Source: Candidatus Calidihabitans tengchongensis (GTDB lineage Bacteria > Sysuimicrobiota > Sysuimicrobiia > Sysuimicrobiales > Kaftiobacteriaceae). Taken from it: a stretch of 64,000 nt of DNA. The stretch spans positions 226 through 64,225 of the forward strand of contig JAVKIE010000013.1 in NCBI GenBank assembly GCA_031459615.1, written 5' to 3'. The notes beneath the pieces are model-generated. The model made no database searches, was not told where the DNA came from, and saw nothing but the letters and a program-made list of their open reading frames with translations. A program made the position numbers and the translations under genes. Positions 6,502 through 35,494 of this stretch are shown here, piece by piece (the stretch's first letter is position 1; each line of letters opens with the position of its first letter).

Positions 6502-7179
6502 TCACTCCTCCAGGACGTACTCGAACACCAGGTATCCCACCACCGCGATGACCGCGTCGAACGCCACCAGCAGGCGGATCCCCGGCAGGGCGTCTGCGAG
6601 CGGCCGTCCGGCCAGGAGCCTGGCGGTGGCGCCGGCAGCGCTGATGAGCACCGGGGACGCCACCGGGAGCAGCAGGATCGGCAGCAGCACCTCCCGCATG
6701 CGGGTGTTGACCGACATGGCCGAGAACAGGACGCCGGCCACGACCAGCCCCACGCTGCCCAGGACCAGGATCAGAGCCAGGGGGCCTGCCGCCCGTCCCA
6801 GGGGGACCCCGCTGAAGACGATCATCGCCGGGATCACCAGCACCTCCACGGCCAGAAGAATCAACAGGGTGCTGATGGCCTTGGCCACATAGATCAGGGC
6901 CGGGTCGAATGGCAACAGGCGCAGCGCCTCCAGGCACCGGTCCTCCCGTTCCAGAACGAATGTCCGCGACAGCCCCAGGATGCTGGCGAAGGCCAGGGTC
7001 ACCCAGAGCATGCCGGGGGTGACGGCGACGGCCTGGGCGGGGGAGGGGGAGAAGGCGAAGGTGAACACCACGGCGGCCAGCAGGGCGAAGACGCCCATGG
7101 CGGCCGCCAGCTCGCGGGTGCGCAGCTCCAGTAGCAGATCCTTGCCCACCATCAGACCCACGGCCTGCAGACCGCTCAC
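6502..7179 (-). CDS. ccmB: heme exporter CcmB
   Basis: KDLLLELR, FVLEREDRCLEAL, LLPILLLPV; about six TMs. Confidence 0.95.
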   Translation of the reverse strand: MSGLQAVGLMVGKDLLLELRTRELAAAMGVFALLAAVVFTFAFSPSPAQAVAVTPGMLWVTLAFASILGLSRTFVLEREDRCLEALRLLPFDPALIYVAKAISTLLILLAVEVLVIPAMIVFSGVPLGRAAGPLALILVLGSVGLVVAGVLFSAMSVNTRMREVLLPILLLPVASPVLISAAGATARLLAGRPLADALPGIRLLVAFDAVIAVVGYLVFEYVLEE

Positions 7180-7880
7180 GTCTGCGCCCCCACCAGCTCG
7201 GCGTACAGCCGCTCGGCGGCCTGGCGGTCAGGAAAACCGTTGGGCGCCTGGTAGGCCACCCGGCCGTCCACCAGGATGACCACCCGGTCGGCCAGCGCCA
7301 GCCCCTGCTCGATGCTGTGGGTGGTCAGGACCACCGTCCTGCTGGACCGCATCCGGGTGAGCAGGCCGACCAGCAGATCGGCGGCCGCCCGGTCCAGTCC
7401 CACAAACGGCTCGTCCAGCAGCAGCAGCGGGGGGTCGTGCACCAGGGCCCGGGCGATGCTCAGGCGCCGGACCATGCCGTGGCTGTAGGTGCGGACGGGG
7501 TCGTGGCGGCGCCCCCACAGGCCGACTGCGTCCAGCAGCGCCTCCGCCCGCCCCCACGGGTCGGCCACCCCGTACCCCCGGGCTGCGAAGATGAGGTTTT
7601 CCAGTCCCGACAGGGCCCCGTACAGGTAGCTGTGGTGGGACACCAGCCCCAGGTGCCGGCGGAGGCGAGGGTTGTCAGCGGGGTCCTCCCCGAACAGGCG
7701 GACCCGCCCGGCGGTGGGACGCATGAGGGTGGCTGCGATCTTCAGGAAGGTGGTCTTGCCGGCCCCGTTGGGGCCAAAGATGACCACGGACTCTCCGTCG
7801 GCAACATCCAGGGTGACGCCGCGCAGGGCGCTCACGGCCCCAAAGACCTTGTGGACGTCCCGGGCCTCGACCACGCGCAC
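7176..7880 (-). CDS. ccmA: heme ABC exporter ATPase CcmA
   Basis: Walker A GPNGAGKT, YSHGM signature, LLLLDEP; GTG at 7880 with GAGGA RBS. Confidence 0.92.
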   Translation of the reverse strand: MRVVEARDVHKVFGAVSALRGVTLDVADGESVVIFGPNGAGKTTFLKIAATLMRPTAGRVRLFGEDPADNPRLRRHLGLVSHHSYLYGALSGLENLIFAARGYGVADPWGRAEALLDAVGLWGRRHDPVRTYSHGMVRRLSIARALVHDPPLLLLDEPFVGLDRAAADLLVGLLTRMRSSRTVVLTTHSIEQGLALADRVVILVDGRVAYQAPNGFPDRQAAERLYAELVGAQT

Positions 7881-8112: not shown

Positions 8113-8565
8113 GTGTACAGCGGGACGGAGGATGTCGGCCGCATCAGGCGCCGGACGTTTCTTGACTGGCTGTTCGGCGCTGGACTGGCGATTCTGTCCG
8201 GAACGGTCCTGTACCCGGTGCTGCGCTACCTGATTCCGCCGCGGGTGAAGGAGGTGACTCACACCTCCGTGGTGGCGGGCAAGCTGTCCGAGATGCTCCC
8301 CAACTCGGGCAAGATCTTTGCTTTCGGGGGGCGCCCGGCAATCCTGCTCCGCACCCCCGAAGGGGAGGTGCGGGCGTTCAGCGCAGTGTGCACCCACCTG
8401 GCCTGCACGGTCCAGTACCGGCCGGACCTGCGGCACATCTGGTGCGCCTGCCACGACGGCCACTACGACCTCCACGGCCAGGTGCTGTCCGGTCCGCCGC
8501 CGCGGCCACTGGAACCCTACGTGGTGACCATCAAGGGAGACGACATCATCGTCTCCCGGGGGTAG
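8113..8565 (+). CDS. Rieske [2Fe-2S] subunit of a Rieske/cytochrome b complex
   Basis: Tat-like RRTFL + TM, CTHLAC and CACHDG boxes, GPPPRPL. Confidence 0.95.
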   Translation: MYSGTEDVGRIRRRTFLDWLFGAGLAILSGTVLYPVLRYLIPPRVKEVTHTSVVAGKLSEMLPNSGKIFAFGGRPAILLRTPEGEVRAFSAVCTHLACTVQYRPDLRHIWCACHDGHYDLHGQVLSGPPPRPLEPYVVTIKGDDIIVSRG

Positions 8566-11472: not shown

Positions 11473-14067
11473 ATGGGGCGCCCCGCTGTGCGCATCCGCC
11501 GACGCACCTTCCTGACGACGACCGCCGCCGCCGGCGGCGTGCTGGCCGTCAGCCACCTCGTCCCCCGCGGGGTGACCGCGCTGGTGGCCCGGTCTCCGGA
11601 GGCGCCCGACCGGCCGGTGGAGGACTGGGTGCCCACCACCTGCTGGATCGGCAAGCAGGACTGCGGGATCCTGGCCCGGCGGATCGGTGGTCGTGTCGTG
11701 AAGCTCGAAGGCCACCCGGGGCACCCCCTCAACGTGGGCACCCTCTGCCCCAAGGGTGTCGCCCAGATCATCGCGCTGTATGACCCTCACCGGGTGAAGA
11801 CACCGCTCATCCGGACCAACGGCAAGGGCCAGCCCGGCCAGTGGCGTCAGGCCTCCTGGGATGAGGCCCTGGATCTGGTGGCCCGGCGGATCCGGGAGGC
11901 GCGGGCGAAGGATCCGCGGCTGGTGGTCTGGCAGAAGGGACGCAGCAAGGGTAAGGCCTTCTACGACGAGGCCTTTGTCAAGGCCTGCGGCGCCACCAAG
12001 CTGCACCACGGCGCCTTCTGTTCCGACGCTGGCTACCGGGCCGGCGAGTACACCGTGGGCATCTCAGGGGTGCTGCACCCCGACTTCCGCTACACCCGCT
12101 ACCTGCTGGCTTGGGGGTGGAACGGCACCAACGCCGGCGGAAACCAGCTGTGCTGGATTACCTGGCCGCAGCAAATGGTCGCCGCGCGGGAACGGGGCAT
12201 GAAGATCGTGGTCATCGACCCGCGCCTGCGGGGGATGGGGCCGTTCGCCGACGAGTGGCTGCCCATCCGCCCCGGCACCGATCTGGCCCTGGCCCTGGCC
12301 CTGTGTCACGAACTCGTCCGCCAGGGTACCGTGGACCGGGAGTACCTGGCCCGCTACACCAACGCCCCCTTCCTGGTGGGGCCGGACGGCTTCTTCGTGC
12401 GCGTGGGCGGGAAGGAGCAGATCTGGGACCGCCGCCACGGCCGGCCCCGCCCCGCCGACAGCCCCGATGCCGACCCGGCCCTGGACGGCGAATTCACGGT
12501 GGGCGGGGTTCGCGCGCGGCCAGCGTTTGCGGTGTTCGCCGAGCACCTCAGCCGCTACACCCCCGAGTGGGCCGCCCAGGTCTGCGGCGTTCCGGCCGAG
12601 GCCATCCGGCGGGTGGCCCGGGAGCTGGGAGAGGAAGCCCGCATCGGCAGCACCGCCGTGGTGGACGGCGTGACCTTGCCGTACCGGCCGGTGGCCATCA
12701 TGGCCTACCACGTGGCCCAGCAGGAGCTGGGGTTTCAGGCGGTGCGGGCCATGATCACCCTGATGATGCTGCTGGGCGCGGTCGGCGCTGTGGGCGGGCA
12801 GCGGTTTGACGTGGGCGGGTGGAAGATCCACGAGAACTTTGACAAGCTCGAGCACATCGAAATCGCAGACCCTCCCTACAACATCTGGCTGAAGGACAGC
12901 CCGTACTTTCCCATCAACAGCAACAACTCAGCGGTGGTGGCGAAGGTCCTGCAGGACCCCGACCGCTACGGCGTGCGGGAACGGCCCGAGGTCCTCCTGG
13001 TGCATATGTCCAATCCTCTGGTGGCCTTCGCCTCCCAGCCCGACATCCTGGAAGGATTCAAAAAGATCCCCTTCGTGGCGGTCATCGACCCCTGGCTGTC
13101 GGAGACGGCCGACTACCTGGCCGACGTGATCCTGCCGGCGGCCACCCTGGAGAAATATGAGGGGCCGAGTCAGGCCAACAACCAGTACCTGGACGGGGTG
13201 GCCATGCGGCTGCCCGTCATGGCTCCGCTGTTTCAGTCCCGGGGGGACATTGACATCTACCTGGACCTGTGCGAGCGGGCGGGCATTCTCTATGGACCAG
13301 GGGGGTACCTCGACCGTCTCAACGAGGCACTCCACCTCACCGATCCCTACCGCCTGCCCCTGGACCGCAAGCCGACGGTGCGGGAGATCGTTGACCGCTG
13401 GGCGCGGTCTCAGGGAATCGCGGAGGGCGTGGCCTTCTTCGAGAAAAACGGGGTGAAGGTGAAGGGACCCGTCCCGCCCGCGAAGGCATACGGGTATGCT
13501 GCCTCCCCGCCGTTCGGCGGGGTCCGCCACCGGCTGTACGGCGAAGGCCTGCTGCGCTACCGCGCGCAGATGCAGGCCCGGGGCGTCCCGGAACTGTACT
13601 GGCGGGATTACACCCCTCTGCCCACCTGGCGCGCGCCGACCATGGACGGATCGCCCGCCGCCTACGACCTGTACCTGATCAGCTACAAGATGATTGAGTT
13701 CAAGCAGTCCCGCAGCAGCTTCATCCCCCTCCTGGCCGAGCTGGCTCCCCGGCAGCGGCTGGACATCAACGCCCGGACGGCGCGGGAGCGGGGGATCCGG
13801 GACGGGGATGAGGTGTGGGTGGAGTCCCACAACGCCCTGACCGGTGAAACCCGGCGGGTCCGGGTGCGGGCCCACCTCACCGAGGCCATCCGACCCGACA
13901 CGGTGGGCATGCCCCACCACTACGGCCTGTGGACTCACCCGTGGGCGACAGGACAGGGTCCCACGCCCAACGCCCTGTTCTTTACCGGCGAGGGGTACGT
14001 GGCCAACACGGCCGACCAGTCCTTCCACGTGAAGGTGCGCGTCTGGCGGGCGGAGGAGGGCCGCTGA
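11473..14067 (+). CDS. Tat-exported Mo/W-bisPGD oxidoreductase catalytic subunit (Psr/Phs/Arr-like group)
   Basis: RRRTFL Tat motif, CWIGKQDC...CPKG, YDPHRVKTPL, VVIDPR, PIRPGTD, SETADYLADVILP. Confidence 0.93.
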   Translation: MGRPAVRIRRRTFLTTTAAAGGVLAVSHLVPRGVTALVARSPEAPDRPVEDWVPTTCWIGKQDCGILARRIGGRVVKLEGHPGHPLNVGTLCPKGVAQIIALYDPHRVKTPLIRTNGKGQPGQWRQASWDEALDLVARRIREARAKDPRLVVWQKGRSKGKAFYDEAFVKACGATKLHHGAFCSDAGYRAGEYTVGISGVLHPDFRYTRYLLAWGWNGTNAGGNQLCWITWPQQMVAARERGMKIVVIDPRLRGMGPFADEWLPIRPGTDLALALALCHELVRQGTVDREYLARYTNAPFLVGPDGFFVRVGGKEQIWDRRHGRPRPADSPDADPALDGEFTVGGVRARPAFAVFAEHLSRYTPEWAAQVCGVPAEAIRRVARELGEEARIGSTAVVDGVTLPYRPVAIMAYHVAQQELGFQAVRAMITLMMLLGAVGAVGGQRFDVGGWKIHENFDKLEHIEIADPPYNIWLKDSPYFPINSNNSAVVAKVLQDPDRYGVRERPEVLLVHMSNPLVAFASQPDILEGFKKIPFVAVIDPWLSETADYLADVILPAATLEKYEGPSQANNQYLDGVAMRLPVMAPLFQSRGDIDIYLDLCERAGILYGPGGYLDRLNEALHLTDPYRLPLDRKPTVREIVDRWARSQGIAEGVAFFEKNGVKVKGPVPPAKAYGYAASPPFGGVRHRLYGEGLLRYRAQMQARGVPELYWRDYTPLPTWRAPTMDGSPAAYDLYLISYKMIEFKQSRSSFIPLLAELAPRQRLDINARTARERGIRDGDEVWVESHNALTGETRRVRVRAHLTEAIRPDTVGMPHHYGLWTHPWATGQGPTPNALFFTGEGYVANTADQSFHVKVRVWRAEEGR

Positions 14068-14816
14068 TGCCGCGGTACGCCATGGTCATCGACCTGGACC
14101 GGTGCACCGGCTGCCGGGCGTGCATGGAGGCCTGCAAGGTCGAGAACAACACTCCCCAGGCCCACTTCTGGATGTACGTCTTCCGGTTTGAGGAAGGGGA
14201 GTTCCCCAACACCCGGGTGTGGTTTCTGCCGCGGCCGTGCATGCACTGCGACAACGCTCCCTGCGTGAAGGTGTGCCCCGTGGGCGCGCGCTACAAGCGG
14301 CCGGACGGCCTGGTGGCCACCGACTTCGACCGCTGCATCGGCTGCCGCTACTGCGAGGTGGCGTGCCCGTACGGGGTCAATTACTTCAACTGGAAGAAGC
14401 CCGACCGCAACCAGTACCTGGACTGGCTGGACCGAGAGGCGGCGGAGGTTCTGGCTCCCTACACCGGCGGGGCCGCGCCCCCCTACCGGAACCCCGACCT
14501 GGATCGTGCCTACGGACCGGAGCGGCGCCGCATTGCCGGCGGCGGCCACCTCAAGGGCGTCATCGAAAAGTGCACCTTCTGCGTGCACCGGATTGAGCGC
14601 GGCCAGCAGCCGGCCTGCGTCGCCAACTGCCCGCTGTTCGCCCTGCACTTCGGCGACCTGGACGATCCCCACAGCCGGGTCGCCCAGCTGCTGCGGCGGC
14701 GGCCCCACTTCCGGTTGCTGGAGGAGGCGGGTACGCAGCCGCGGGTGTACTACCTGGGGGGCAAGCCGCCGGGGGAGGAAACCCGGCAGATCGAGACCGT
14801 CCGGGCACGGGAGTAG
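14067..14816 (+). CDS. four-cluster [4Fe-4S] electron transfer subunit (PsrB/NrfC/DmsB-like)
   Basis: YAMVIDLDRCTGCRAC, CMHCDNAPCVKVCP, CIGCRYCEVACP, KCTFC. Confidence 0.95.
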   Translation: MPRYAMVIDLDRCTGCRACMEACKVENNTPQAHFWMYVFRFEEGEFPNTRVWFLPRPCMHCDNAPCVKVCPVGARYKRPDGLVATDFDRCIGCRYCEVACPYGVNYFNWKKPDRNQYLDWLDREAAEVLAPYTGGAAPPYRNPDLDRAYGPERRRIAGGGHLKGVIEKCTFCVHRIERGQQPACVANCPLFALHFGDLDDPHSRVAQLLRRRPHFRLLEEAGTQPRVYYLGGKPPGEETRQIETVRARE

Positions 14817-14819
14817 ACT

Positions 14820-16127
14820 ATGGAGGTGCGCGCGCGCCAGATCCAGGTCCCGTACGGGGTGGGGCGCTTCTCACCGGCCACCCTGGTCCTCGTCGCCCTC
14901 CTGCTGGCGGTGATCGCCAGAGGCCTGTACGCCCTCTACGTCCAGCTCACGGAAGGATTGGTGGTCACCGGCCTGCGCGACGTCGGAACCATGGGCGGGT
15001 CCACCTGGGGGCTGTACATTGCCTTTGACGTCTACTTCGTCGGCGTCAGCTTCGCCGGGATCAGCACCGCCGCCCTGGTGCGGCTGCTGAACCTGCAGCA
15101 CCTGCGGGCAGTCTCGCGGATGGCGGAGGTCCTGACCATCGTCTCTCTGGTCCTGGCGGCGTTCAGCGTGCTGCCGGACCTGGGCCAGCCCCTGCGGGGG
15201 ATTGTGCACCTGCTGAAGTACGCCCGGCCCCAGTCGCCCTTCTTCGGGACGTTCACCATGGTCATCGCCGGCTACCTCTTTGCCAGCCTGGTGTACTTCT
15301 TCCTGGACGGGCGCCGGGACGCCGCCCTGCTGGCCCGGATCCCCGGGCGGCTGCAGTGGTTCTACCGCCTGTGGGCGGCCGGCTACCGGGGGACGCCGGC
15401 AGAACGGGAGCGGCACCACCGGGTCAGCTTCTGGCTGTCGCTGGCCATCCTCCCCATGCTGGTGATCGCCCACTCCACCCTGGGGTTCGTCTTCGGCCTG
15501 CAGGTGGGTCGACCGGGGTGGTTCAGCGCCCTGCAGGCGCCGGCGTTCGTCATCCTGGCCGGGGTGTCGGGCGTGGGGCTGCTGATCGTGGTGGCGGCCG
15601 TGGCCCGCCGAACCCTCGGGGCGCAGGATCGGCTGACTCCGGACGTGTTCCGCTGGCTGGGAAACTTCCTGATGGTGCTCACGGCGGCCTATATGTACTT
15701 CATGCTGGTGGACTGGCTGACGGCCACCTACGCCGCCCCCAGCCACGAGCAGCGGGTCTCCCGGGCCATCTTCGTGGGCCCCTATGCGCGCGTCTACTGG
15801 GTGTCGGTGGCCTCCCTCCTGGCCGCGTTCTACCTGTTGCTGCGCCAGTTTTTGTCGGGCCAGAGCCGCATCGCGGTTCCGGTGGTCTCGGGAGTGCTGG
15901 TGAACATCGCCGCGGTGGGCAAGCGGTTCCTCATCGTGGTGCCCTCCCAGACTCACGGCGCCATGCTGCCGTATCCGCCCGGGGTATACGCGCCCTCGTG
16001 GGTCGAATACAGTATCCTGGGAGGCCTGGTGGCTCTGGGCGCGTTGATGTACGTCCTGTTCGCCAAGACGTTCCCCCTGATCGATCTGCCCGACGACTTT
16101 CGCGTGGAAGGGGTTCGACGACGGTGA
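14820..16127 (+). CDS. NrfD/PsrC-family quinol-interacting membrane subunit
   Basis: TWGLYIAFDVYFVG, DLGQPLR, QSP, YAPSWVE; about 10 TMs. Confidence 0.92.
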   Translation: MEVRARQIQVPYGVGRFSPATLVLVALLLAVIARGLYALYVQLTEGLVVTGLRDVGTMGGSTWGLYIAFDVYFVGVSFAGISTAALVRLLNLQHLRAVSRMAEVLTIVSLVLAAFSVLPDLGQPLRGIVHLLKYARPQSPFFGTFTMVIAGYLFASLVYFFLDGRRDAALLARIPGRLQWFYRLWAAGYRGTPAERERHHRVSFWLSLAILPMLVIAHSTLGFVFGLQVGRPGWFSALQAPAFVILAGVSGVGLLIVVAAVARRTLGAQDRLTPDVFRWLGNFLMVLTAAYMYFMLVDWLTATYAAPSHEQRVSRAIFVGPYARVYWVSVASLLAAFYLLLRQFLSGQSRIAVPVVSGVLVNIAAVGKRFLIVVPSQTHGAMLPYPPGVYAPSWVEYSILGGLVALGALMYVLFAKTFPLIDLPDDFRVEGVRRR

Positions 16128-16369: not shown

Positions 16370-17059
16370 ATGGGGGTGCCGGCGGTGGCCCGGGCGCGGG
16401 CCCGGGTGTACCAGGCACTGGCGCAGGCTCTTCAGCCTCCTGACGACAGTCGGCTGGCATCGCTGGCCGGCGCCCCAACCCTCCTGCGGCGGCGGGTCGC
16501 CGCGCTGGCAGGCCTGGCGCAGGGCGATCCCGCCTCCCGGCTGGTGCGCCTGCTGGAGGTCCTGGCCGACACGGATCTCCTGACCCTCCAGACCGTGTAC
16601 GTCCGGGTGTTCGGACTGGACGGATCAGGCGGCCGTCCTGCCTGTGAGTCGTACTACCGGTCGCGCTCTCCCGAAGACATCCCGCGGGTGCTGGCCGCCG
16701 TTGAGCGCGCCTACGCGGCTATGGGGGTGGCGGTGGATCCCGCGGGAGGGCTGCCCCCGGACCACCTGACCGTCGAACTGGAGTGTGCGGCCCTCCTGTG
16801 TGCCCACGAGGCGGCCGCGTGGCGGTCCCCCTCCGGGGCGGCGGAGGTGCTGGCCCGGGAGCAGCGGTTTCTCCGCGACCACCTGGGGGGGTGGCTTCCC
16901 GCCCTCGGCACTGACATTGCCCGGAGGGATCCGGTGGGAGTGTATGCCGGGATCGTTTCCTGCGCCGCCGACCTGGTGCGGCACGACCTGGCGTGGCTAC
17001 AGGTGCTGGTGCGCGCCGGAGCCGGCGGCTCCAGGGGCGAGGAGGGTGGGGAATCATGA
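16370..17059 (+). CDS. TorD/DmsD-family maturation chaperone
   Basis: ESYY and PPDHLTVELE motifs, FLRDHLGGW. Confidence 0.9.
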   Translation: MGVPAVARARARVYQALAQALQPPDDSRLASLAGAPTLLRRRVAALAGLAQGDPASRLVRLLEVLADTDLLTLQTVYVRVFGLDGSGGRPACESYYRSRSPEDIPRVLAAVERAYAAMGVAVDPAGGLPPDHLTVELECAALLCAHEAAAWRSPSGAAEVLAREQRFLRDHLGGWLPALGTDIARRDPVGVYAGIVSCAADLVRHDLAWLQVLVRAGAGGSRGEEGGES

Positions 17060-18642
17060 GCGGGGCCCGCACGGGCGCTGCGACCGTGGCGGTCTTTCTG
17101 TGCGACCACCTGCAGACCCGCTGGGCCCTGCCCGTCGAGGAGATCCGCCGGTGGGCTGCCACGGCGGCGCCGCCTGTCACACTCCAGGTGGTCAGGGGGC
17201 TGTGTGAGGCGCCGCGGGGCTTGCAGGAACATCTGGCCCGGAGCGGCGCCTCTCGGGCGGTGGTGGGGCTGTGCCGGCGGCCCGCCTCCCGGGCGGACCT
17301 GCAGGCCGCGGTCCGACGGGCCGGGCTGGACCCCGCCGGGGTGGAGGTGGTGGACCTGGGTACCTACGCCGCACGGGCCCACCGCCCTCCGGATGCCGCC
17401 CGCAAGGCCGTGGTCCTGCTGGCCGGCGCGGCCGCGCGGGCCCGCGCATTCGCCGGGAGCCTCGCCCAGCAGCACGTGCCCGTCCCTCCCCGCACCCTCA
17501 GTCGCAGGTCCCTGCTGACCCTGTCGGTGCTGGAGTACCGGTACGTGCCGGCGGTCCGGGAGGATCTGTGTCGGGCGGAGGAGGGCTGCACCCTGTGCGA
17601 GTGGGCCTGCCCGCACCGGGCGCTGCAGGTGCAGGACGGGTCGGTTGCCCTGGACGCACTTCGCTGCACCGGCTGCGGGATCTGCGTGACCGCGTGTCCC
17701 CACGATGCCGTGCACCTGCCGGGGTGGATGGCCCACGAGGTGCACGCGCTGGCCGACGCACTGGCAGATGCCTCCGCCTCGTCCAGGCCGGCGGTCCTTG
17801 TCCTGTGCGCCCACGCAGACTCCCCCCTGCACGACCTGGTGCACCGCCGGGGTGGGTATCCCGCGCCGTGGATCCCCCTGGAGGTCCCCTGCGTCGAGAT
17901 GGTCTCCGGCGGATGGCTGTTGGCCCTGGTGAGCCGCGGCGTGGCGGTGGGGGTGCTGCCCTGTCCGGACAGGGCCGTCCCGGGCGAGCGCAGCCTGGTG
18001 CGGGGGAGGGTGGAGTTCTGCCGCGCGCTGCTGGAGCAGACGGGCCACCACCCGGAAGCGGTGCGTCTGCTGCCCCAAGATCCGGCCGCGCTGGCCGAGG
18101 CGCTGGAGGTCCGGCCGGAGGTCCGCCCGCCCCGGTCCTCTCCCCGGGAACCATTCAGGCACCTGGCGACCGGGCAGACGATCCTGCACCTGGTCGGCGG
18201 TGCGGCTCCCGACGTGACCCACCCCTTCTCTCCCCTGGGCGTGGTGGAGGTGAAGGACGGCTGCACGCTGTGCGGAGCGTGTGCCACCGCCTGTCCGACC
18301 GACGCCCTTGCAGTGCACGCCGCCGAGGACCAGCTGTCCCTGACCTTTGATCCGGACCGGTGCGTGGCGTGCGGTCACTGCGTACCGGTCTGCCCCGAGC
18401 CGGGCGTGCTGCGGCTGCGGCAGACCACCAGCCCCGCAGCCCTGGCCGCCGGAAAGGTGCCGGTGGCCACCGACCGCGCTCCCCGGTGCGCACGCTGCCA
18501 CCGGCCGATCGCACCGGCGGGCATGCTGCGCCGGATCGCCGCAGCCCTGGCGTCGCATCCGGAGACCGTGCAGGTGATCTCGCGGTACTGCGCGGACTGC
18601 CGCGGGCTGCCCGGAGCCGTCGATGGCCCTGTGGAGGCGTGA
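17056..18642 (+). CDS. polyferredoxin with HdrA-N-like and MvhD-like segments
   Basis: Four ferredoxin-type Cys motifs, VFLC...LCE...VVGLC N-terminus, EVPC...VGVLPC middle region, CARC..CADC tail. Confidence 0.8.
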   Translation: MSGARTGAATVAVFLCDHLQTRWALPVEEIRRWAATAAPPVTLQVVRGLCEAPRGLQEHLARSGASRAVVGLCRRPASRADLQAAVRRAGLDPAGVEVVDLGTYAARAHRPPDAARKAVVLLAGAAARARAFAGSLAQQHVPVPPRTLSRRSLLTLSVLEYRYVPAVREDLCRAEEGCTLCEWACPHRALQVQDGSVALDALRCTGCGICVTACPHDAVHLPGWMAHEVHALADALADASASSRPAVLVLCAHADSPLHDLVHRRGGYPAPWIPLEVPCVEMVSGGWLLALVSRGVAVGVLPCPDRAVPGERSLVRGRVEFCRALLEQTGHHPEAVRLLPQDPAALAEALEVRPEVRPPRSSPREPFRHLATGQTILHLVGGAAPDVTHPFSPLGVVEVKDGCTLCGACATACPTDALAVHAAEDQLSLTFDPDRCVACGHCVPVCPEPGVLRLRQTTSPAALAAGKVPVATDRAPRCARCHRPIAPAGMLRRIAAALASHPETVQVISRYCADCRGLPGAVDGPVEA

Positions 18643-19291
18643 GCCGCCGACCGTTGGTGCGGGCAGAGATCCCCTGGTGGGGGTGGTTCTGGCCGGGGGG
18701 CGATCGGTCCGCATGGGGGCCGACAAGCGTGTCATGCGGATAGGCGGGCTGACGCTGCTGGAGCGGGCCCTGGGAGTGCTGCGGCCGCTGGTGGACGATC
18801 TGATGGTGGTCACCCGAAACGAGACCGCGCAAACGACCTCCGCCCGGGTGGTGGCCGACGAGGTTAAGGAACGCGGCCCCCTGGCCGGTCTGTATACGGG
18901 TCTGCGGGCCGCCGGCCGAGGGCGGGTGCTGGTGATCCCGGTGGACATGCCGCTGCTGACCCCGGAAGTCCTGGCGCTGCTGGTTGCCGCGAGCCCCGGA
19001 TGGCTGGTGACGGTCCCGCGCTGGCGCGGCCGCGTGGAGCCCCTGGTGGGCGTGTATGACGTCCGATGCGCGGGGGCCATGGAGCGCGCGCTGCGCCTGC
19101 CCGGGGGATCGGTGCAGGACTTCGTCAGGTCCATGGGCCCGGCGGTGCGCTTCGTGGAGGAGACCGAGGTGCGGGAGACCGGTGACCCGGAGGTCCTGTT
19201 CTTCAACGTCAACACCCCGGAGGACGCGCTGCGGGCCGAGCGCCTGCTGGCTTCGGCCCGGCGCGCTCCGGCGGGAGGGGAGGCGCCGTGA
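18623..19291 (+). CDS. mobA: molybdenum cofactor guanylyltransferase
   Basis: VLAGGRSVRMGADK, GPLAGL, PVDMP, FFNVNTPED. Confidence 0.93.
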   Translation: MALWRREPPTVGAGRDPLVGVVLAGGRSVRMGADKRVMRIGGLTLLERALGVLRPLVDDLMVVTRNETAQTTSARVVADEVKERGPLAGLYTGLRAAGRGRVLVIPVDMPLLTPEVLALLVAASPGWLVTVPRWRGRVEPLVGVYDVRCAGAMERALRLPGGSVQDFVRSMGPAVRFVEETEVRETGDPEVLFFNVNTPEDALRAERLLASARRAPAGGEAP

Positions 19292-21030
19292 TCCTGCCCC
19301 CCCAGGCGGCGTCCGTGGAGGAGGCCTGGTCGGCGATCTGCCGGCGCGTCAGCCGGCTGCCGGCCGAGGAGGTGGACCTGCTTGATGCGGCCGGGCGGGT
19401 GCTGGCCGAGGACATCACAGCGCCGACGGACCTGTGGCCGTTTCCCCGGGCTGCCATGGACGGCGTCGCCGTCCGGGCGGCCGACGTGGCCGCGGCCTCA
19501 CCTGAGCGGCCCGTCACGCTGCCGGTGATCGGCTCCATCTTTGCCGGGCAGATCCCGGGACCCCTCCTTCCGGGGGGTGCGGTGCGCATTGCCACCGGCG
19601 CCGTCCTGCCTCCGCAGGCCGATGCGGTGATCCCCCTGGAGCAGGTAACGCTCACCGATCAGGAAGTGATCGTCACCGCGCCCGCCGCAACAGGAGCGCA
19701 CGTCTTCCCAGCCGGAGAAGATGCCCGCCGGGGGGAGGTCGTCGTGCGGGCCGGGACGGTGCTGCGGGCGGGCCAGGTGGGCCTGCTGGCTGCTCTGGGC
19801 ATCGCGCGCGTTCCGGTGGTCCGGCGGGCCCGGGTGGCCGTCCTGGCGGTCGGCGACGAGCTTGTCGAGCCCGGCCGGTCGCCGGATGCCGGCCAGGTGC
19901 GGGACAGCAACACGTTCGCCCTGGCGGCAGCCGTGGCCGAAGCCGGTGCGCTCCCTCGACGGGTGGGCGTGATCCCCGACGACCCCCTGCGGGTGGCCGC
20001 AGTCCTGAAGGCTGTTGCTGCGGCCGACGCCGTCATCGTGTGCGGGGGGATGTCGGTGGGCGAGCGGGACGTCGTCAAGGAGGCGATGCGCCTCGCCGGG
20101 GTGGAGGTGGTGTTCTGGCGGGTGCCCATGAAGCCGGGTGCTCCCGCTGCCTTCGGGATGTCCGGCGCCACACCCGTGTTCGGCCTGCCGGGTACCCCGG
20201 GAGCCGCCATGGTGGCGTTCGAGGAACTGGTGCGGCCGGCCCTGCGCCGGATGATGGGCTGCCGGGACGTCCACCGGCCGGTCCTGGTCGGGCGGCTGGC
20301 GCAACCGGTGCGGGGGCGTCCGGGCCGCCGGCGCTTCCTGTGGGCGCGGGCAGAGGAGCGAGGCGGGCGCCTGGTGGTGTACCCGCTGCGGGGACAGGGC
20401 ACGGCGGCCCTGCGCTCGGTCAGCGACGCCAACGCCCTCCTGTTGGTGGACGAGGGCTGCGCCGGCCTGGAGCGGGGCGAACGGGTTCGCCTCCAGCTGC
20501 TGGGCGCGCCCACGACTGGCTCCGACGCTCCGGCACCGTCCGTGGTTGCTGTGGTGGGCGCGAAGGGGGCGGGCAAGACGGCCCTGATCGAGCGGCTGGC
20601 GGTCGAGCTGCGCCGCCGCGGCCTGCGTGTGGCGGCTGTCAAGCACGACGCCCACGGCTTTCAGATCGACCGGCCCGGCACCGACACCTGGCGGTTCTGG
20701 CAGGCCGGGGTCGAGGTGGCCGCCATCGCCGGTCCGGGCAAGGCGGCGGTAGTGATTCGGTCTGGCGGCGAGCCCGCCCTGGAGGCGCTGCTGGACCTGG
20801 TGGCCGACGCCGACGTGGTGCTGGTGGAAGGCTACAGCCAGTCTGCCCTCCCCAAGATCGAGGTCCGCCGGGCGGGTGTGGCCTCTGACCGTCCGCCCCC
20901 GGCCGGGCCGGTGGTGGCCCGCGTGGGCGACGAGCGGGCCGAGGGAACGCTGACCCTTGATGATGTGGCCGCCCTGGCCGATCACCTCCTGTCGTCCGTG
21001 ATCCACCTGCGCGGCCCGTCCGCCCCGTAG
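19288..21030 (+). CDS. moeA: MoeA-MobB fusion (molybdopterin molybdotransferase + MobB domain)
   Basis: GRVLAED, AMDG, GDEL, DSN, MKPG, GLPG, then GAKGAGKT..VKHDAHGFQID.PGTDT. Confidence 0.92.
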   Translation: MILPPQAASVEEAWSAICRRVSRLPAEEVDLLDAAGRVLAEDITAPTDLWPFPRAAMDGVAVRAADVAAASPERPVTLPVIGSIFAGQIPGPLLPGGAVRIATGAVLPPQADAVIPLEQVTLTDQEVIVTAPAATGAHVFPAGEDARRGEVVVRAGTVLRAGQVGLLAALGIARVPVVRRARVAVLAVGDELVEPGRSPDAGQVRDSNTFALAAAVAEAGALPRRVGVIPDDPLRVAAVLKAVAAADAVIVCGGMSVGERDVVKEAMRLAGVEVVFWRVPMKPGAPAAFGMSGATPVFGLPGTPGAAMVAFEELVRPALRRMMGCRDVHRPVLVGRLAQPVRGRPGRRRFLWARAEERGGRLVVYPLRGQGTAALRSVSDANALLLVDEGCAGLERGERVRLQLLGAPTTGSDAPAPSVVAVVGAKGAGKTALIERLAVELRRRGLRVAAVKHDAHGFQIDRPGTDTWRFWQAGVEVAAIAGPGKAAVVIRSGGEPALEALLDLVADADVVLVEGYSQSALPKIEVRRAGVASDRPPPAGPVVARVGDERAEGTLTLDDVAALADHLLSSVIHLRGPSAP

Positions 21031-29717: not shown

Positions 29718-29825
29718 TTGTGAATCAAGACTCTCAACAACTGAAAAATACAGCCTTCGCCCGATTGGCCCCGGGCCTGACAGCCGGCTAACGTTTTTGG
29801 CAGTATTCGTTGAAACCGTTGAAAC
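29718..29825 (+). promoter_or_regulatory. AT-rich promoter/operator region of the oxidase operon
   Basis: Imperfect palindrome TTGTGAATC-AA-GACTCTCAA at 29718; tandem CGTTGAAAC x2 at 29808-29825. Confidence 0.5.
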
Positions 29826-29828
29826 GAT

Positions 29829-30515
29829 ATGACGGCTGTCCCGTCCGCCAACCGCCCGCGACCCCGCGCCCGTGTTCTCCGGGCGGTGGCTGCCAAAGAC
29901 GACATCCTCCGGCGCCTGCCGTCCGCCGGCGGCCGTACCGTCCGCGAACTGGCCACGGCGGTCGGGCTGTCGCCGTCCGCCCTGCGCCAGCACCTGGCGT
30001 CCCTGGAACGGGAGGGCCTGGTCGAGAAGATGGCCGTCCGGGGCCGCCCCGGACGGCCGGCGTTCGCCTACCGCCGCGCCGAACCCTCCGCGGGCCCGGC
30101 CGATCCGTCCAGATTTCTGGGCGTGCTGTTGCGCGTGGTGGAGTCCCTGGGGCCGGACCGCGCCGCGGAGGTCGTGGACGGCGTGGTGGGGGCGCTGGAG
30201 AGCGAGTACCGGGCCATCGAGCAGATCCCCGACCCCGGCGCCCGCATCCGCGCGGCCGTTTCCGTGCTCTTCGACGGCGAGGGGCGCTCGCAGGTCCGCA
30301 TCGCCACCGACGGCTACGAGGTGAGCCTGCGGCGCTGTCCGTTGCTGCCGGCGGCCCGGGAGTCCCCGGCGTGCTGTGAGATCGCCCGGCGCCTGCTGGC
30401 CCGGCTGTCCCGCGCCGAGGTGGAACAGCGGGAGTCCCTGCTGCGGGGCGATCCCCGCTGCCTGTTCCTCCTGCGGGTGCCGGCCGCGGGCGGCCGGATG
30501 GCGAAGGCGGGGTGA
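29829..30515 (+). CDS. SufR-like HTH regulator with C-terminal Cys cluster
   Basis: TVRELA..LSPSALRQHLASLE, GRP, RCPL..CCE..GDPRC. Confidence 0.8.
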   Translation: MTAVPSANRPRPRARVLRAVAAKDDILRRLPSAGGRTVRELATAVGLSPSALRQHLASLEREGLVEKMAVRGRPGRPAFAYRRAEPSAGPADPSRFLGVLLRVVESLGPDRAAEVVDGVVGALESEYRAIEQIPDPGARIRAAVSVLFDGEGRSQVRIATDGYEVSLRRCPLLPAARESPACCEIARRLLARLSRAEVEQRESLLRGDPRCLFLLRVPAAGGRMAKAG

Positions 30516-31246
30516 GGCCGGTGGCGCGGCACGCGGGCGCGGTGGCCGTGCTGTGGGGCGTCCTGACCGTCCTGGGCCTGCTGGCGGCGGGACGCGCCCA
30601 CCTGCTGCCGGTGGCGGCCGCCCGGGAGGCCCGCATCATCGACGACGCCTTCCGCTTTCTCCTCCTGCTGGCGGTCCCGGTGTTCACGTTCGTGCTGGCC
30701 GCCCTCGCGTACTCGGTGGTGGCGTTCCGCGGCCGCGGGGAACCTCCCGACGACGGCCCCCCGCTGCGGGGGCGCTCGGCGGTGCCGTGGATCTGGCTGG
30801 CGGTCACGGGCGGCCTGGCCGTCTACGTCATCTTCAACCCCGGCCTGCGGGGTCTGGCCGAGCTGCGCGCCGATCGCCATGCGGACCTGGTGGTGCGGGT
30901 GGAGGGTTCCCGGTGGGTGTGGCGGTTCGTCTATCCCGACGCGGGCGTCACCAGCCGGGAGCTGGTCCTGCCGGTGGGCCGGCGAGTGCGGTTCGAGGTG
31001 ACTGCCGCCGACGTGGTCCACTCGTTCTGGATCCCGGCGTTCCGGGTGAAGGTGGACGCGGTGCCCGGCATGGTGACGACGGTGTACGTGACGCCCACCC
31101 GGGTCGGCGACCGGGCCGCCGACGTGAACTTCCGGGTCCAGTGCGCCGAGCTGTGCGGCCTGGGCCACCACCTGATGGCCTCGCCGGTCCGGGTGGTGGA
31201 CCCGGAGGCGTTTCGCGAGTGGGCGGAGAGCGCCCGGTCCCCGTAG
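30512..31246 (+). CDS. coxB: cytochrome c oxidase subunit II (CuA, no fused cytochrome c)
   Basis: DVVHSFWIP, QCAELCGLGHHLM. Confidence 0.95.
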   Translation: MRPVARHAGAVAVLWGVLTVLGLLAAGRAHLLPVAAAREARIIDDAFRFLLLLAVPVFTFVLAALAYSVVAFRGRGEPPDDGPPLRGRSAVPWIWLAVTGGLAVYVIFNPGLRGLAELRADRHADLVVRVEGSRWVWRFVYPDAGVTSRELVLPVGRRVRFEVTAADVVHSFWIPAFRVKVDAVPGMVTTVYVTPTRVGDRAADVNFRVQCAELCGLGHHLMASPVRVVDPEAFREWAESARSP

Positions 31247-31292
31247 GCGGCGGAGGCGGGGGCAGGGGGCACGAGGTGAGCGGGCTGTGCGC

Positions 31293-33122
31293 ATGATCGC
31301 GCGCGGGATCGGGTGGGGGCTGGTCGGTTTCGCGCTGGGCGCCGGGGCGACGCTGGCGGCCGGGTGGGCCGTGGGGCGCCCCCCGCGGGCCGAGGTCTGG
31401 GTGACCGTCGGCTACGTGATCGGGCTGGCCGGCTGGCTGCTGGGCGTCGGTCTGTGGGAGGCCTGGGCCCGGGGGTGGGTGGGGCTGCCGGTGCGCCACG
31501 AGCCCGACCACACGTGGCGGCGCTACGTCCGGTTCACCACCGACCACAAGGTGATCGGGGTGCAGTACCTGGTCACCTTCGTGGCGCTGTTCGTGGTGGC
31601 GGGCGCGATGGCGCTGGTGATGCGGGTGGAGCTGGCCGCCCCCGGGCCGACGGTGATGGGAGCCGCCGCCTACACCCACCTGATGAGCCTGCACGGCATC
31701 ATCATGATCGCCGTGGCGGTGGCCACCCTCCTGGGCGGCTTCGGCAACTACCTGGTGCCGCTGATGATCGGCGCCGAGGACATGGCCTTCCCCCGGCTCA
31801 ACGCCCTCAGTTACTGGCTGGTGCCGCCGGTGGCGGTGCTGCTGGTGGCCACGCCCTTGGCCGGCGGATTCGACACCGGGTGGACGGCCTACCCGCCCCT
31901 CAGCGTGGTCAACGCCAGCGGCCAGGTCCTGTTCAACCTGGCGGTGATCACCTTCGGGCTGTCCTCCATCCTGGGCGGGATCAATTTCCTGGCCACCATC
32001 GTGGGGCTGCGGGCTCCCGGCATGTCCTGGCGGCGGCTGCCGATCTTCGTGTGGTCGGTGTTCGCCGCGTCGCTGATCAGCGTCACCGCCACCCAGTACC
32101 TGGCGGCGGCGCTGCTGATGGTCCTGCTGGACCGGGAGGCGGGGATGGCGTTCTTCGCCCCGGCCCGGGGAGGCATGCCCCTCCTGTACCAGCACATCTT
32201 CTGGTTCTACTCCCACCCGGCGGTCTACATCATGATCCTGCCCGCCTTCGGCGTCGCCCTGGAGGTGCTGACCCACTTCTCCCGCAAGCCCCTGTACGCC
32301 TACCCCTGGGTGGTGGGAGGGTTCCTGGGCATCGTGGGGCTGAGCTTCGTGGTGTGGGCGCACCACCTCTACACCAGCGGCATGCGGGAGTCGCTGCTGG
32401 GCCCCTTCATGGCCACCACCGAGCTCATCTCCATCCCCACGGGGCTCGTGTTCCTGGCCGCCCTGGGGACCCTGTGGATGGGCCGGCTGTGGCTGCGCAC
32501 CCCGATGCTCTTCGCCCTGGGGTTCCTGTTCAACTTCCTGATCGGGGGCGTGACCGGCATCTTCAACGCCGACGTCCCCACCGATCTGCACCTGCAGGAC
32601 ACCTACTTCGTGGTCGGCCACTTCCACTACACCATCGTGGGCGGGATGATCTTCGCCCTCTTCAGCGGCCTGTACTACTGGTTCCCCAAGGTGACCGGGC
32701 GGATGTATGACGAGCGGCTGGGCCGGGTGCACTTCGGGTGGATGTTCCTGGCCTACAACGCCACGTTCCTGCCCATGTTCTGGGCGGGCGTGCACGGGAT
32801 GAACCGGCGCATCGCCGACTACCCGGCGTCCCTGGCCGGGGTGAACCTGTGGATTTCGGTCATGGCGGGCCTGCTGGGGGCCAGCATCCTGGTGTTCCTG
32901 TTCAACGTGGTGCGCAGCTGGCTTCGCGGGCCTCGGGCCGCGGCCAACCCCTGGGGGGCGCGGACGCTGGAGTGGCAGGTGCCGTCGCCTCCCCCCGAAG
33001 GCAACTTCCCCCACCCGCCCCAGGTGGTGGGGGATCCCTACGGCTACGGGGTGCCGGGGGCCGTGCACGCTGTGATGGCCGCCGCCGGCGGATCCGGGGA
33101 GGGGAGGGCCCATGGACTCTGA
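31293..33122 (+). CDS. coxA: heme-copper oxidase subunit I, A2-type
   Basis: TTDHKVIG, DMAFPRLN, WFYSHPAVY, VWAHH, VVGHFHY, GMNRR. Confidence 0.97.
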   Translation: MIARGIGWGLVGFALGAGATLAAGWAVGRPPRAEVWVTVGYVIGLAGWLLGVGLWEAWARGWVGLPVRHEPDHTWRRYVRFTTDHKVIGVQYLVTFVALFVVAGAMALVMRVELAAPGPTVMGAAAYTHLMSLHGIIMIAVAVATLLGGFGNYLVPLMIGAEDMAFPRLNALSYWLVPPVAVLLVATPLAGGFDTGWTAYPPLSVVNASGQVLFNLAVITFGLSSILGGINFLATIVGLRAPGMSWRRLPIFVWSVFAASLISVTATQYLAAALLMVLLDREAGMAFFAPARGGMPLLYQHIFWFYSHPAVYIMILPAFGVALEVLTHFSRKPLYAYPWVVGGFLGIVGLSFVVWAHHLYTSGMRESLLGPFMATTELISIPTGLVFLAALGTLWMGRLWLRTPMLFALGFLFNFLIGGVTGIFNADVPTDLHLQDTYFVVGHFHYTIVGGMIFALFSGLYYWFPKVTGRMYDERLGRVHFGWMFLAYNATFLPMFWAGVHGMNRRIADYPASLAGVNLWISVMAGLLGASILVFLFNVVRSWLRGPRAAANPWGARTLEWQVPSPPPEGNFPHPPQVVGDPYGYGVPGAVHAVMAAAGGSGEGRAHGL

Positions 33123-33315
33123 ACTGGCCGCGCGCCTGCGGGTGGGCACGCGGGTGCTGGGCGCCCTGCTGGCGCTCACCGTCCTGGAGGTGCCCGTGGC
33201 GTTCCGGGTGCCGCATCCGCTGCCGTGGCTGGTGCTGCTGAACCTGGCCGACGCCGCGCTCATCGTGTGGTACTTCATGCACGTCGCCGATCTGTGGCGC
33301 CCCGGGGAGGAGTGA
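33112..33315 (+). CDS. oxidase subunit IV-like small membrane protein
   Basis: LLALTVLEV...LIVWYFMHV. Confidence 0.8.
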   Translation: MDSELAARLRVGTRVLGALLALTVLEVPVAFRVPHPLPWLVLLNLADAALIVWYFMHVADLWRPGEE

Positions 33316-33317
33316 CC

Positions 33318-33884
33318 GTGGCCACCCGCGTCGCCGCCCGCCCCCGCTACAGCCGGCTGTATCTCCGGCGGCTGGGCCTGTGGCTGTTCCTGCTGTCCGA
33401 GGGGTTCCTGTTTTCCGCCCTGCTGGCCGCCCGCTACTACCTGCTGGGCCTGGAGCGGCCCGAGGGCCTCAACCAGCCCCTGGGGCTGGCCATCACCGCC
33501 GTGCTGCTGGCCAGCAGCCTCACCGCCTACCGCGCCGAAGCGGCCATCGCCCGGGGGCACCGGTCCCTGTTCGCGCGCAACACCCTGGCCACGGTCGGCC
33601 TGGGCCTGCTGTTCCTGGCAGGGGTGGGGGTGGAGTGGGCGCAGGCCTTTGCCCACTTTCCCCCCGGCCGGCGGGTGGGGACCATCTTCTTCACCCTGAC
33701 GGGCATGCACGCCCTGCACGTCGCCAGCGGGGTCGCGTTGCTGGCTGGCGTGTACCTGCACGGGCGCCGGGGTCGGTACGGCCCCCACGACTACTGGCCG
33801 GTGGAGGGGGCCGTCAAGTACTGGCACTTCGTGGACGTGGTGTGGGTGTTCATCTACCCCACTTTGTACCTGGTCACCGGCTGA
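33318..33884 (+). CDS. coxC: cytochrome c oxidase subunit III (short form)
   Basis: GLWLFLLSE, TLTGMHALHV, YWHFVDVVW. Confidence 0.93.
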   Translation: MATRVAARPRYSRLYLRRLGLWLFLLSEGFLFSALLAARYYLLGLERPEGLNQPLGLAITAVLLASSLTAYRAEAAIARGHRSLFARNTLATVGLGLLFLAGVGVEWAQAFAHFPPGRRVGTIFFTLTGMHALHVASGVALLAGVYLHGRRGRYGPHDYWPVEGAVKYWHFVDVVWVFIYPTLYLVTG

Positions 33885-34977: not shown

Positions 34978-35019
34978 CGCGATCGCAGTCCACGACGAGA
35001 CCGATGGAGGTGAGGAGGG

Positions 35020-35484
35020 ATGCGGATGAGGACGGTCGTGATCCTGGGGATCGCTCTGGCCCTGGCGGCCATCGGCCCCGCGGCGGGAGCCCCCAAGGCC
35101 CAGAAGGTCACCGTCGTGCTCAACGAGATGAGCTTCACGCCCTCTCGGGTGACGGTGACCGCGGGCACGCCGGTGGAGCTGGTCCTGGTGAACCGCGGCA
35201 AGCAGAAGCACGAGTTCATGGTGTACAGCCTGCCCCGGGCGGGGCTGGCCGGTGAAGAGCTGGAGGAGTGGGCCAAGGAGAACACCTACTTCAAGGGCGT
35301 CGAGGTGACCGTGGAGACTGCAGGGGTGGAAATTGAGGCGGAGGCCCTGATGGAGGTGGAGCTGGCGCCGGGGCGGTCGGTGACGCTGGAGTTCACCCCG
35401 CAGCGCAAGGGGACGTTCGAGATCGGGTGCCACGTGGAAGGCCACTACGAGGCCGGCATGAAGGGCACCTTTGTCGTCCGATAG
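35020..35484 (+). CDS. exported type-1 cupredoxin 3
   Basis: Signal peptide, KHEF, GCHVEGHYEAGM. Confidence 0.9.
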   Translation: MRMRTVVILGIALALAAIGPAAGAPKAQKVTVVLNEMSFTPSRVTVTAGTPVELVLVNRGKQKHEFMVYSLPRAGLAGEELEEWAKENTYFKGVEVTVETAGVEIEAEALMEVELAPGRSVTLEFTPQRKGTFEIGCHVEGHYEAGMKGTFVVR

Positions 35485-35494
35485 GAGGCGCGCC

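Follow-up and report, generated by a model that had tools for sequence, protein, structure and literature searches.

Among the described molybdoenzymes, those closest to the system considered here are the polysulfide reductase PsrABC of Thermus thermophilus (PDB entries 2VPW to 2VPZ), the respiratory arsenate reductase ArrAB(C), represented by Shewanella ANA-3 (6CZ7) and, for the sensor ArrX, by Chrysiogenes arsenatis (6X6B), together with the anaerobic arsenite oxidase ArxAB(C), and, in one feature, the arsenite oxidase AioAB and the iodate reductase IdrA. That feature is the iron-sulfur cluster FS0, which gates electron transfer between the Mo site and the rest of the chain. Four Cys residues hold FS0 in PsrA, whereas AioA and IdrA have three, AioA lacking the fourth ligand. 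A 64,000-nucleotide stretch of the genome of “Candidatus Calidihabitans tengchongensis” (GenBank assembly GCA_031459615.1, contig JAVKIE010000013.1, positions 226 to 64,225; hereinafter, the window) contains an operon for another three-Cys enzyme, in which the second FS0 Cys is replaced by Gly. Judged from sequence and fold comparisons, the genes at 11473 to 16127 encode a periplasm-facing three-subunit molybdoenzyme of the PsrABC/ArrABC architecture, which resembles PsrABC in its predicted twin-arginine translocation (Tat) export, a Cys-ligated molybdenum-bis(pyranopterin guanine dinucleotide) cofactor (Mo-bisPGD), a four-cluster B subunit, and a heme-less NrfD-type membrane anchor. The overall explanation that we favor, with slightly better than even confidence, is a complex of the PsrABC/ArrABC type whose three-Cys FS0 is likely a [3Fe-4S] cluster and whose substrate is an arsenic oxyanion.

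The catalytic A subunit (864 amino acids; P0001) is encoded at 11473 to 14067 on the forward strand, as are all features below unless indicated otherwise. This is the sole long frame in that region with a gene-like GC pattern over codon positions (the window is 72% GC). Its Pfam domains, Molybdop_Fe4S4, Molybdopterin, and Molydop_binding, score 102, 55, and 30 bits, respectively, against cut-offs of 24, 27, and 23, which places the protein in the dimethyl sulfoxide (DMSO) reductase (MopB) superfamily. The best matches in a sequence search of PDB are PsrA (2vpw; E value, 6.9e-40) and ArrA (6cz7). A Foldseek search with the AlphaFold2 model (overall predicted local distance difference test score [pLDDT], 92) returned the same two proteins as tied best matches, PsrA at 9.5e-44 and ArrA at 1.1e-43, with template modeling scores of the fold matches in the 0.6 to 0.7 range and 20 to 22% identity; PsrA, the best match by sequence and by fold, is only 22% identical in the fold alignment. 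The twin-arginine motif R-R-R-T-F-L occupies residues 9 to 14 (11497 to 11514). The B subunit (14067 to 14816) is a four-cluster ferredoxin with 16 Cys residues in four groups (Pfam Fer4_11), which scores 206 bits with the NCBIfam model for ArrB and 203 bits with the one for DsrO; its ATG overlaps the stop codon of the A gene by one base (TGATG, 14064 to 14069), suggesting translational coupling of A and B. The C subunit (14820 to 16127; 435 amino acids) is a heme-less membrane anchor of the NrfD/PsrC type (Pfam NrfD, 8e-23). In such a complex, electrons would move along a path formed by the Mo site, FS0, the four clusters of B, and the quinone site of C.

The FS0 motif, C57-W-I-G60-K-Q-D-C64-x27-C92-P-K-G, spans 11641 to 11757, the last position being the end of Cys92-Pro-Lys-Gly, with 27 residues between Cys64 and Cys92. 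In HMMER alignments, Gly60 (GGC, 11650 to 11652) takes the place of the second FS0 Cys in both ArrA (6cz7, C-Q-G-C-T-S-W-C) and FdhA (9vap), so that the protein departs from the canonical four-Cys pattern C-x2-C-x3-C-x27-C at its second Cys, while Cys57 (TGC, 11641 to 11643) and Cys64 (TGC, 11662 to 11664) are in place. The initial annotation of this sequence, which had reported the same replacement at these positions, was exact in every detail. It had also named the Cys of HHGAFCSD, near 12019, as the probable Mo ligand, and the alignments with PsrA and ArrA agree: Cys183 (TGT, 12019 to 12021) stands opposite the Mo-ligand Cys of both and is probably a Mo ligand, as in ArrA. In an alignment of 206 full-length relatives, for which one in six close homologues and one in three canonical representatives were taken, position 183 is Cys in 50 of the 53 rows with the Gly motif and in 129 of the 132 canonical rows. 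Each of the three remaining FS0 Cys is kept in all Gly-motif rows (53/53, 53/53, and 53/53), and the Lys that follows Cys92 (Lys94) is kept in 52 of 53.

Gly60 is a clade-wide feature of one deep monophyletic clade that reaches no curated equivalog threshold. The 120 closest database proteins are 65 to 100% identical to the A subunit, and a regular expression for the Gly motif matches 117 of them; of the three misses, P0034 begins beyond the motif, whereas CWIG(KQDC) can be seen in the sequences of P0064 and P0092. The names of the metagenome-assembled genomes (MAGs) among these 120 point to Armatimonadota, Tectimicrobiota, Methylomirabilota, Chloroflexota, Nitrospinota, Bacillota, Actinomycetota, and several archaea. 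Farther out, the same regular expression finds the motif in 13 of the best 150 of 12,806 matches, taken as 50%-identity representatives, down to 35% identity; the rest of these 150 show C-x2-C-x3-C or other variants. The motif is also found in 28 of 80 genome loci, including one in a Halodesulfurarchaeum MAG (L028), and, in addition to these loci, on a megaplasmid of Natronorubrum bangense, a haloarchaeon in culture. Altogether, 252 Gly-motif sequences, 30 to 100% identical to the A subunit, were collected from many bacterial phyla and haloarchaea. The string CWIGKQDC, a search for which had been proposed in the initial annotation, accounts for 210 of the 252, followed by CWIGKQEC (18), CWIGKMDC (8), CWVGKQDC (7), and 9 singletons. 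By regular expression, 27 of the Gly-motif loci show a Tat motif, and few of the canonical relatives do. Other residues typical of the clade, located near the Mo-ligand loop and at more distant sites, are Tyr188 (canonical His), His413 (canonical Arg), and Arg807 (canonical His).

Two trees, both built from hand-picked spreads of the collected sequences and hence from subsets, recover the Gly-motif proteins as a single clade: 29 of 29 Gly rows in a FastTree tree of 85 rows (SH-like support, 99) and 17 of 17 in an IQ-TREE LG+G4 tree of 41 rows (SH-aLRT support, 99). The rows included the PhsA of an Escherichia coli plasmid and none of the PsrA, SreA, SoeA, SrrA, ArrA, ArxA, or TtrA references. 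In the FastTree tree, the nearest rows outside the clade are P0133, which has the canonical motif, and P0134; IQ-TREE leaves the order unresolved. The plasmid PhsA falls outside in both trees. A Thiocapsa/Thioalkalivibrio group, which has the canonical CxxCxxxC, carries no Tat motif, and is presumably SoeA-like, also lies outside. Sequences that we take to be SoeA-like are among the nearest canonical relatives, at 27 to 31% identity. Bacterial SreA has been grouped with SoeA, and unnamed Cys-ligated lineages have been reported from a MAG tree (Wells 2023).

Other uncharacterized relatives (the proteins P0159, P0162, P0183, P0206, and P0221 and the locus L057) show another kind of reduced FS0, C-x2-C-N-x-G-P-D-x-I, which lacks the third Cys. 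A clade of their own is formed by three of these proteins in the FastTree tree, an indication that this region of the superfamily has seen repeated loss of FS0 Cys residues.

Seen against known families, the clade stands apart, and its description as a distinct and biochemically uncharacterized group, already offered in the initial annotation, is upheld by the single clade in two trees and by scores below every NCBIfam equivalog cut-off. The best model, PhsA, gives 241 bits against a cut-off of 694, followed by ArrA (143.5 against 1600), QrcB (138 against 440), TtrA (56.6 against 1750), and AioA (20 against 359). Apart from its score, the A subunit differs from ArrA in having the three-Cys FS0, the extra loop Cys discussed below, usually an NrfD anchor, and K-G-R-S where Arr enzymes have R-G-R-Y and Arx enzymes G-R-G-W-G, as these motifs are quoted in PMC13685797. 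AioA, which likewise has a three-Cys FS0, has no protein Mo ligand and pairs with a Rieske subunit, in contrast to Cys183 and the four-cluster ferredoxin partner found here. PhsABC of E. coli plasmid pSE11-3, as annotated, is about 25% identical over 60% of the query, and the annotation of its PhsC is that of a cytochrome b subunit, in contrast to the NrfD-type C subunit found here. The architecture is that of Psr, and the protein is not a PhsA by score or by phylogeny. The PhsA model, run over 301 genomes of one class with three candidates scored per genome, found none at an E value of 1e-180. The Sb(III) oxidase NaoABC, as described in PMC11521347, is set apart by its Rieske subunit NaoC and by the grouping of NaoA with NapA, as opposed to the A-B-NrfD arrangement seen here.

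Gly60 could in principle stem from a sequencing error or a private mutation, given that GGC and TGC differ by one base, and the weak matches to QrcB in NCBIfam and to ActB in PDB (8k9e) could be read as signs of a cofactor-less module. Neither version deserves more than a trace of credence. An error or private change is refuted by the 252 homologues that share the Gly. Against a cofactor-less module stand the conservation of the Mo-ligand Cys, the three FS0 Cys, and Lys94, the adjacent genes for a TorD chaperone and for cofactor synthesis (MobA and MoeA-MobB), and the wide gap to the QrcB cut-off.

The evidence on the substrate comes from the relatives of the window operon. A Pfam tally of 94 open reading frames (ORFs) upstream of 20 clade loci revealed a recurrent trio: a PF12974 periplasmic binding protein (X, 6 cases), a HAMP/HisKA_3 kinase (S, 7 cases), and a LuxR/NarL-type (GerE) regulator (R, 6 cases). 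By tblastn, all three genes lie beside the cassette in 6 of the 28 clade loci (L005, L007, L014, L020, L025, and L026), S and R in two more (L013 and L024), and R alone at the contig edge in another two (L010 and L011); the X protein was found in 0 of approximately 50 non-clade loci. The six complete trios come from four phyla and include near relatives of the window enzyme (L005, 72% identity, and L026, 66%), and the A subunits of the sensor-bearing orthologous cassettes are 60 to 72% identical. The best PDB matches of X are the arsenate binder ArrX (6x6b; 2.3e-55 and 4.2e-61), followed by the arsenite binder AioX (1e-39 and 1.3e-43), whereas PtxB, HtxB, and PhnD, which bind phosphite or phosphonate, match at 1e-13 to 1e-9 only. 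The ligand pocket of AioX, ArxX, and ArrX comprises Y88, C106, Y131, S161, S163, H192, and D210, of which the Cys is absent from PhnD, and each X protein is stated to bind the substrate of its cognate enzyme (Badilla 2018, PMC5908839). All seven residues are kept in X of L005, L025, and L026 and six of seven (S163T) in L007, L014, and L020.

The N. bangense megaplasmid adds a second link to arsenic. The deposited annotation of this locus (DV706_RS18675 to DV706_RS18705) lists a low-molecular-weight protein tyrosine phosphatase (LMW-PTP), a major facilitator superfamily (MFS) transporter, MobA, and an ArsR/SmtB regulator, followed by A, B, NrfD, TorD, and an FeS protein; we read the phosphatase as having an ArsC-like fold, and the A subunit has both CWIGKQDC and the loop Cys. 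In the window A subunit, the equivalents of Arg165 and His189 of ArrA (R157 and H179) are kept. Genes resembling arrR, arrS, and arrX have also been noted upstream of “sreABC” on a Methanoperedens element (Shi 2026, PMC13444090), an arrangement that would fit the same family. The A-B-C operon with upstream arr regulators that has been described for Methanoperedens, from genomes and from jumbo elements (Leu 2020; Shi 2026), resembles the clade loci, a likeness drawn from the descriptions; the function was assigned there by phylogeny only, and the passages of these papers at hand are silent on a change in FS0. From the relatives' sensor trio and the ArsR of N. bangense, we infer that the substrate of the clade is probably arsenate or arsenite. 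Of the S, As, Sb, and Se oxyanions put forward in the initial annotation, it is thus the As part that gains support, from the ArrX/AioX-type sensors and the ArsR beside the relatives' operons.

Several observations weigh against this assignment. No ArrX-like gene was found in the window and no PF12974 protein on its contig; no acr3 was found in the source genome (97% completeness); and the trio marks only the six loci listed above. When the ArsR, LMW-PTP, and MFS proteins of N. bangense were used as tblastn queries, no match was found in the other loci or in the window, and the downstream flanks (55 ORFs from 18 loci) contain nothing recurrent, with ArsP_1 seen once. According to Badilla 2018 (PMC5908839), oxyanion selectivity is not determined by the pocket residues by themselves. 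The ArrA pocket is only partly kept in the A subunit, with K155-G-R-S158 in place of R-G-R-Y, Y188 in place of K198, and V200 in place of Y210; the variant QKGRSK is found in 177 clade sequences. Finally, probable relatives have been labeled sulfur reductases because of their phylogenetic placement with Aquifex SreA (Leu 2020; Shi 2026, PMC13444090). Elsewhere in the source genome, contig C22 encodes a strong PF12974 match that is 32% identical to X, which, from its sequence, we take to be a putative binding protein of the transporter type.

The sulfur reductase label belongs to a broader alternative, that the enzyme reduces a sulfur compound, such as polysulfide, elemental sulfur, thiosulfate, or tetrathionate, which we regard as unlikely but worth keeping in view. 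PsrA is the best match in sequence and ties for the best in fold, PhsA is the best NCBIfam model, and the NrfD anchor is that of PsrC; in addition, an unaffiliated “Deep” complex iron-sulfur molybdoenzyme (CISM) of Halodesulfurarchaeum has been tied to growth with thiosulfate (Sorokin 2017), and a Halodesulfurarchaeum MAG carries L028. However, the PhsA score is far below its cut-off, PhsA falls outside the clade, and ArrA ties with PsrA in the fold search. L028 is no more than a candidate counterpart of the “Deep” CISM HTSR_0627, and there was no protein named after H. formicicum among the 120 matches listed. Rhodanese and sulfurtransferase families are absent from the 25 families listed in each flank tally; in contrast to PsrABC, the clade relatives carry arsenic-type sensors rather than sulfurtransferases. 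Such sensor proteins bound no thiosulfate or tetrathionate in the experiments of Badilla 2018 (PMC5908839).

It seems to us improbable that the enzyme acts on a different metalloid oxyanion, one of Sb, Se, or Te, with an ArrX-like sensor whose specificity has shifted. The limited bearing of pocket conservation on selectivity would allow it, as would the active-site residues that differ from those of ArrA, and new Sb enzymes of the DMSO reductase family are still emerging, NaoABC being one example (PMC11521347). On the other side, AioX and ArxX bound neither antimonite nor selenate in the tests of Badilla 2018 (PMC5908839), NaoABC has a different architecture, as noted above, and the ArsR beside the N. 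bangense operon points to As.

With respect to the cluster itself, a second clade-specific feature, absent from the initial annotation, has to be considered. Relative to PsrA and ArrA in the HMMER alignments, the A subunit has an inserted loop, G215-W-N-G-T-N-A-G-G-N-Q-L-C227 (12115 to 12153; Cys227 codon at 12151 to 12153). The pattern G-W-N-x-T-x-x-G-G-x-x-x-C is found in all 248 full-length clade members (232 by regular expression and 16 by eye) and in 0 of 139 canonical sequences. In the alignment of 206 relatives, every one of the 53 Gly-motif rows has Cys at position 227, and Cys is outside the top five residues at this position in the 132 canonical rows. P0133 has neither Gly60 nor Cys227, and the deepest clade member, P0129, has both, which puts the two changes on the same branch, as one event rather than repeated covariation. 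Cys227 may serve as an alternative fourth ligand or as an active-site thiol.

That a cluster is retained is shown by the invariance of the three Cys and by the conservation of the Lys that follows Cys92. In ferredoxin-type motifs, the loss of one motif Cys usually yields a [3Fe-4S] cluster. From the general fold of the family, we presume that the domain to which the Cys227 loop belongs is the one that binds a pterin and starts at the Mo ligand and that the loop may line the substrate funnel; this placement would favor an active-site thiol over a cluster ligand. The three-Cys FS0 of AioA and IdrA is a precedent for [3Fe-4S] within the superfamily, according to Wells 2023. On the strength of the ferredoxin analogy and this precedent, we rate FS0 as likely [3Fe-4S], at a probability of about one half or marginally above it; held by three Cys, such a cluster would be expected to have a raised potential.

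A point against [3Fe-4S] is the joint origin of Gly60 and Cys227, as Cys227 could complete a [4Fe-4S] cluster. FS0 would then have its fourth ligand supplied by the Cys227 loop, in a “ligand swap,” or by Asp63 or solvent, a possibility that we hold to be doubtful, though not slight. It would agree with the strict presence of Cys227 in the clade and its absence from canonical sequences, and the invariant Gly, the smallest residue, would leave space for an outside ligand. Position 63 is acidic in 51 of the 53 rows, and loop residues 221 to 230 have a mean pLDDT of 78, the lowest of the model core, as is often seen with cofactor-dependent loops. However, Asp63 is replaced by Gly in L024 and by Asn, Ser, or Gly in single sequences, and the co-occurrence of Gly60 and Cys227, being a single evolutionary event, is not independent evidence. 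In addition, going by the general family fold, this loop comes after strand one of the dinucleotide-fold domain, which would put it on the pterin/funnel side and not the FS0 side.

The direction of catalysis is close to balanced, with a slight lean toward a quinol:arsenate reductase over an arsenite:quinone oxidoreductase; the oxidase role suggested in the initial annotation, without gaining support, is a near-even possibility. The relatives' sensor is nearer to ArrX than to AioX, in a comparison in which the solved structures included no ArxX. The aerobic respiratory island of the window, with Rieske/cytochrome b, an aa3 oxidase, cupredoxins, and an orphan FeS plus NrfD pair, is a context that would suit an electron-donating oxidase. 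The quinone type, from which the direction can be read by a rule of thumb quoted from PMC13685797, was approached through marker models: in the source genome, MqnC had no match, MenD gave 68 bits, below its cut-off, and UbiG was likewise below cut-off.

A more far-reaching proposal, which we advance tentatively and at less than even confidence, is that, beside Arr/Arx and Aio, respiratory arsenic oxidoreductases have a third lineage in this widespread clade, marked by a rebuilt point of electron entry or exit, at which FS0 is either [3Fe-4S] or completed by a remote Cys from the new loop. To our knowledge, the only well-studied three-Cys FS0, that of AioA and IdrA, is a high-potential [3Fe-4S] cluster with an oxidase role. 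A second, independent three-Cys FS0, fixed in a wide clade, would provide a natural experiment on how the FS0 potential tunes the catalytic direction. Members of the clade are currently annotated as generic molybdopterin oxidoreductases or as “sulfur reductase.” If they do act on arsenic, surveys based on the arrA, arxA, and aioA markers would overlook the part that Chloroflexota, Actinomycetota, Rokubacteria, Armatimonadota-like bacteria, and haloarchaea take in arsenic cycling, and surveys of arsenic-respiration genes would need a new marker. The sensor evidence makes it testable whether a family labeled as sulfur reductase acts on arsenic, and a cultured carrier, Natronorubrum bangense JCM 10635, is available. 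The system type as such is known; what is undescribed in searchable papers is the fixed FS0 without the second Cys, the loop Cys, the poly-FeS accessory gene, and the arsenic-type sensors. A literature search did not find the motif string, nor anything on a Gly change in papers on FS0, 3Fe-4S, or molybdoenzymes, supplements that may contain alignments lying outside its coverage.

Downstream of the three subunit genes, the cassette continues with a TorD/NarJ-type chaperone (16370 to 17059; Pfam Nitrate_red_del; TIGR03482 at 71 bits, below cut-off) and a poly-FeS protein of 549 amino acids (16993 to 18642; start uncertain) with three to four Fer4 domains, a weak FlpD match, and a stretch resembling the HdrA C terminus and MvhD, whose NCBIfam scores with HdrA2 (72 bits) and NapF (47 bits) are both below cut-off. 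The poly-FeS protein may act in the cytoplasm in maturing or assembling the unusual FS0, or it may serve as an electron-input module; a homologue in L093 occupies 12862 to 14967. Two genes for Mo-bisPGD synthesis follow, MobA (18623 to 19291; Pfam NTP_transf_3) and a MoeA-MobB fusion (19288 to 21030; Pfam MoeA_N/MoCF_biosynth/MoeA_C and MobB). Among the 28 clade loci, many of them on contigs that end early, A is next to B in 28, NrfD follows B in 20, and TorD and the poly-FeS gene are present in 22 and 16, respectively; N. bangense has the same cassette order, with the fifth gene annotated as “hydrogenase iron-sulfur subunit.”

Some loci deviate from this layout. In L006, L007, L010, L017, and L022, the TorD-type gene comes directly after B and no gene for NrfD was detected; some clade members may be soluble periplasmic AB enzymes like ArrAB. 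In L028, no NrfD was detected either, and there are a multiheme cytochrome c gene after B (6946 to 7713) and a TorD-like gene; the A gene is the third in a stretch of six ORFs, of which the two upstream ones have no Pfam match. The source genome has one copy of the clade A gene. It also carries a second, distant MopB-type gene on contig C21 (approximately 89450 to 91900), an open frame of 813 amino acids with 37% identity over query residues 34 to 153.

Upstream of the A gene, Pfam searches identify a Rieske protein (8113 to 8565), a cytochrome b (ending at 9623), and a multiheme cytochrome c (ending at 10888). Their membership in the system is doubtful, as they recur in only 1 of the 28 clade loci (L017), and we treat them as neighbors. 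Farther downstream, NCBIfam models detect a NarL-type regulator (38971 to 39729, reverse strand), a HisKA_3 kinase (39611 to 41419, reverse strand), and a second regulator (41730 to 42482, forward strand). The window regulators are 49 to 52% identical to the regulator of the L007 trio, and it is possible that the regulators and kinase at 38971 to 42482 control the operon. The respiratory island (30380 to 33884 and 35014 to 38320) encodes an aa3-type oxidase (COX2, COX1, and COX3), two cupredoxins, and, without an adjacent gene for a molybdoenzyme A subunit, a four-cluster FeS protein and another NrfD-type membrane protein; a quinol:cupredoxin module is one possible reading of this arrangement. 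A gene for an ArsR-family helix-turn-helix regulator (HTH_5, 3.6e-9), at 29823 to 30515, is located immediately upstream of the oxidase genes.

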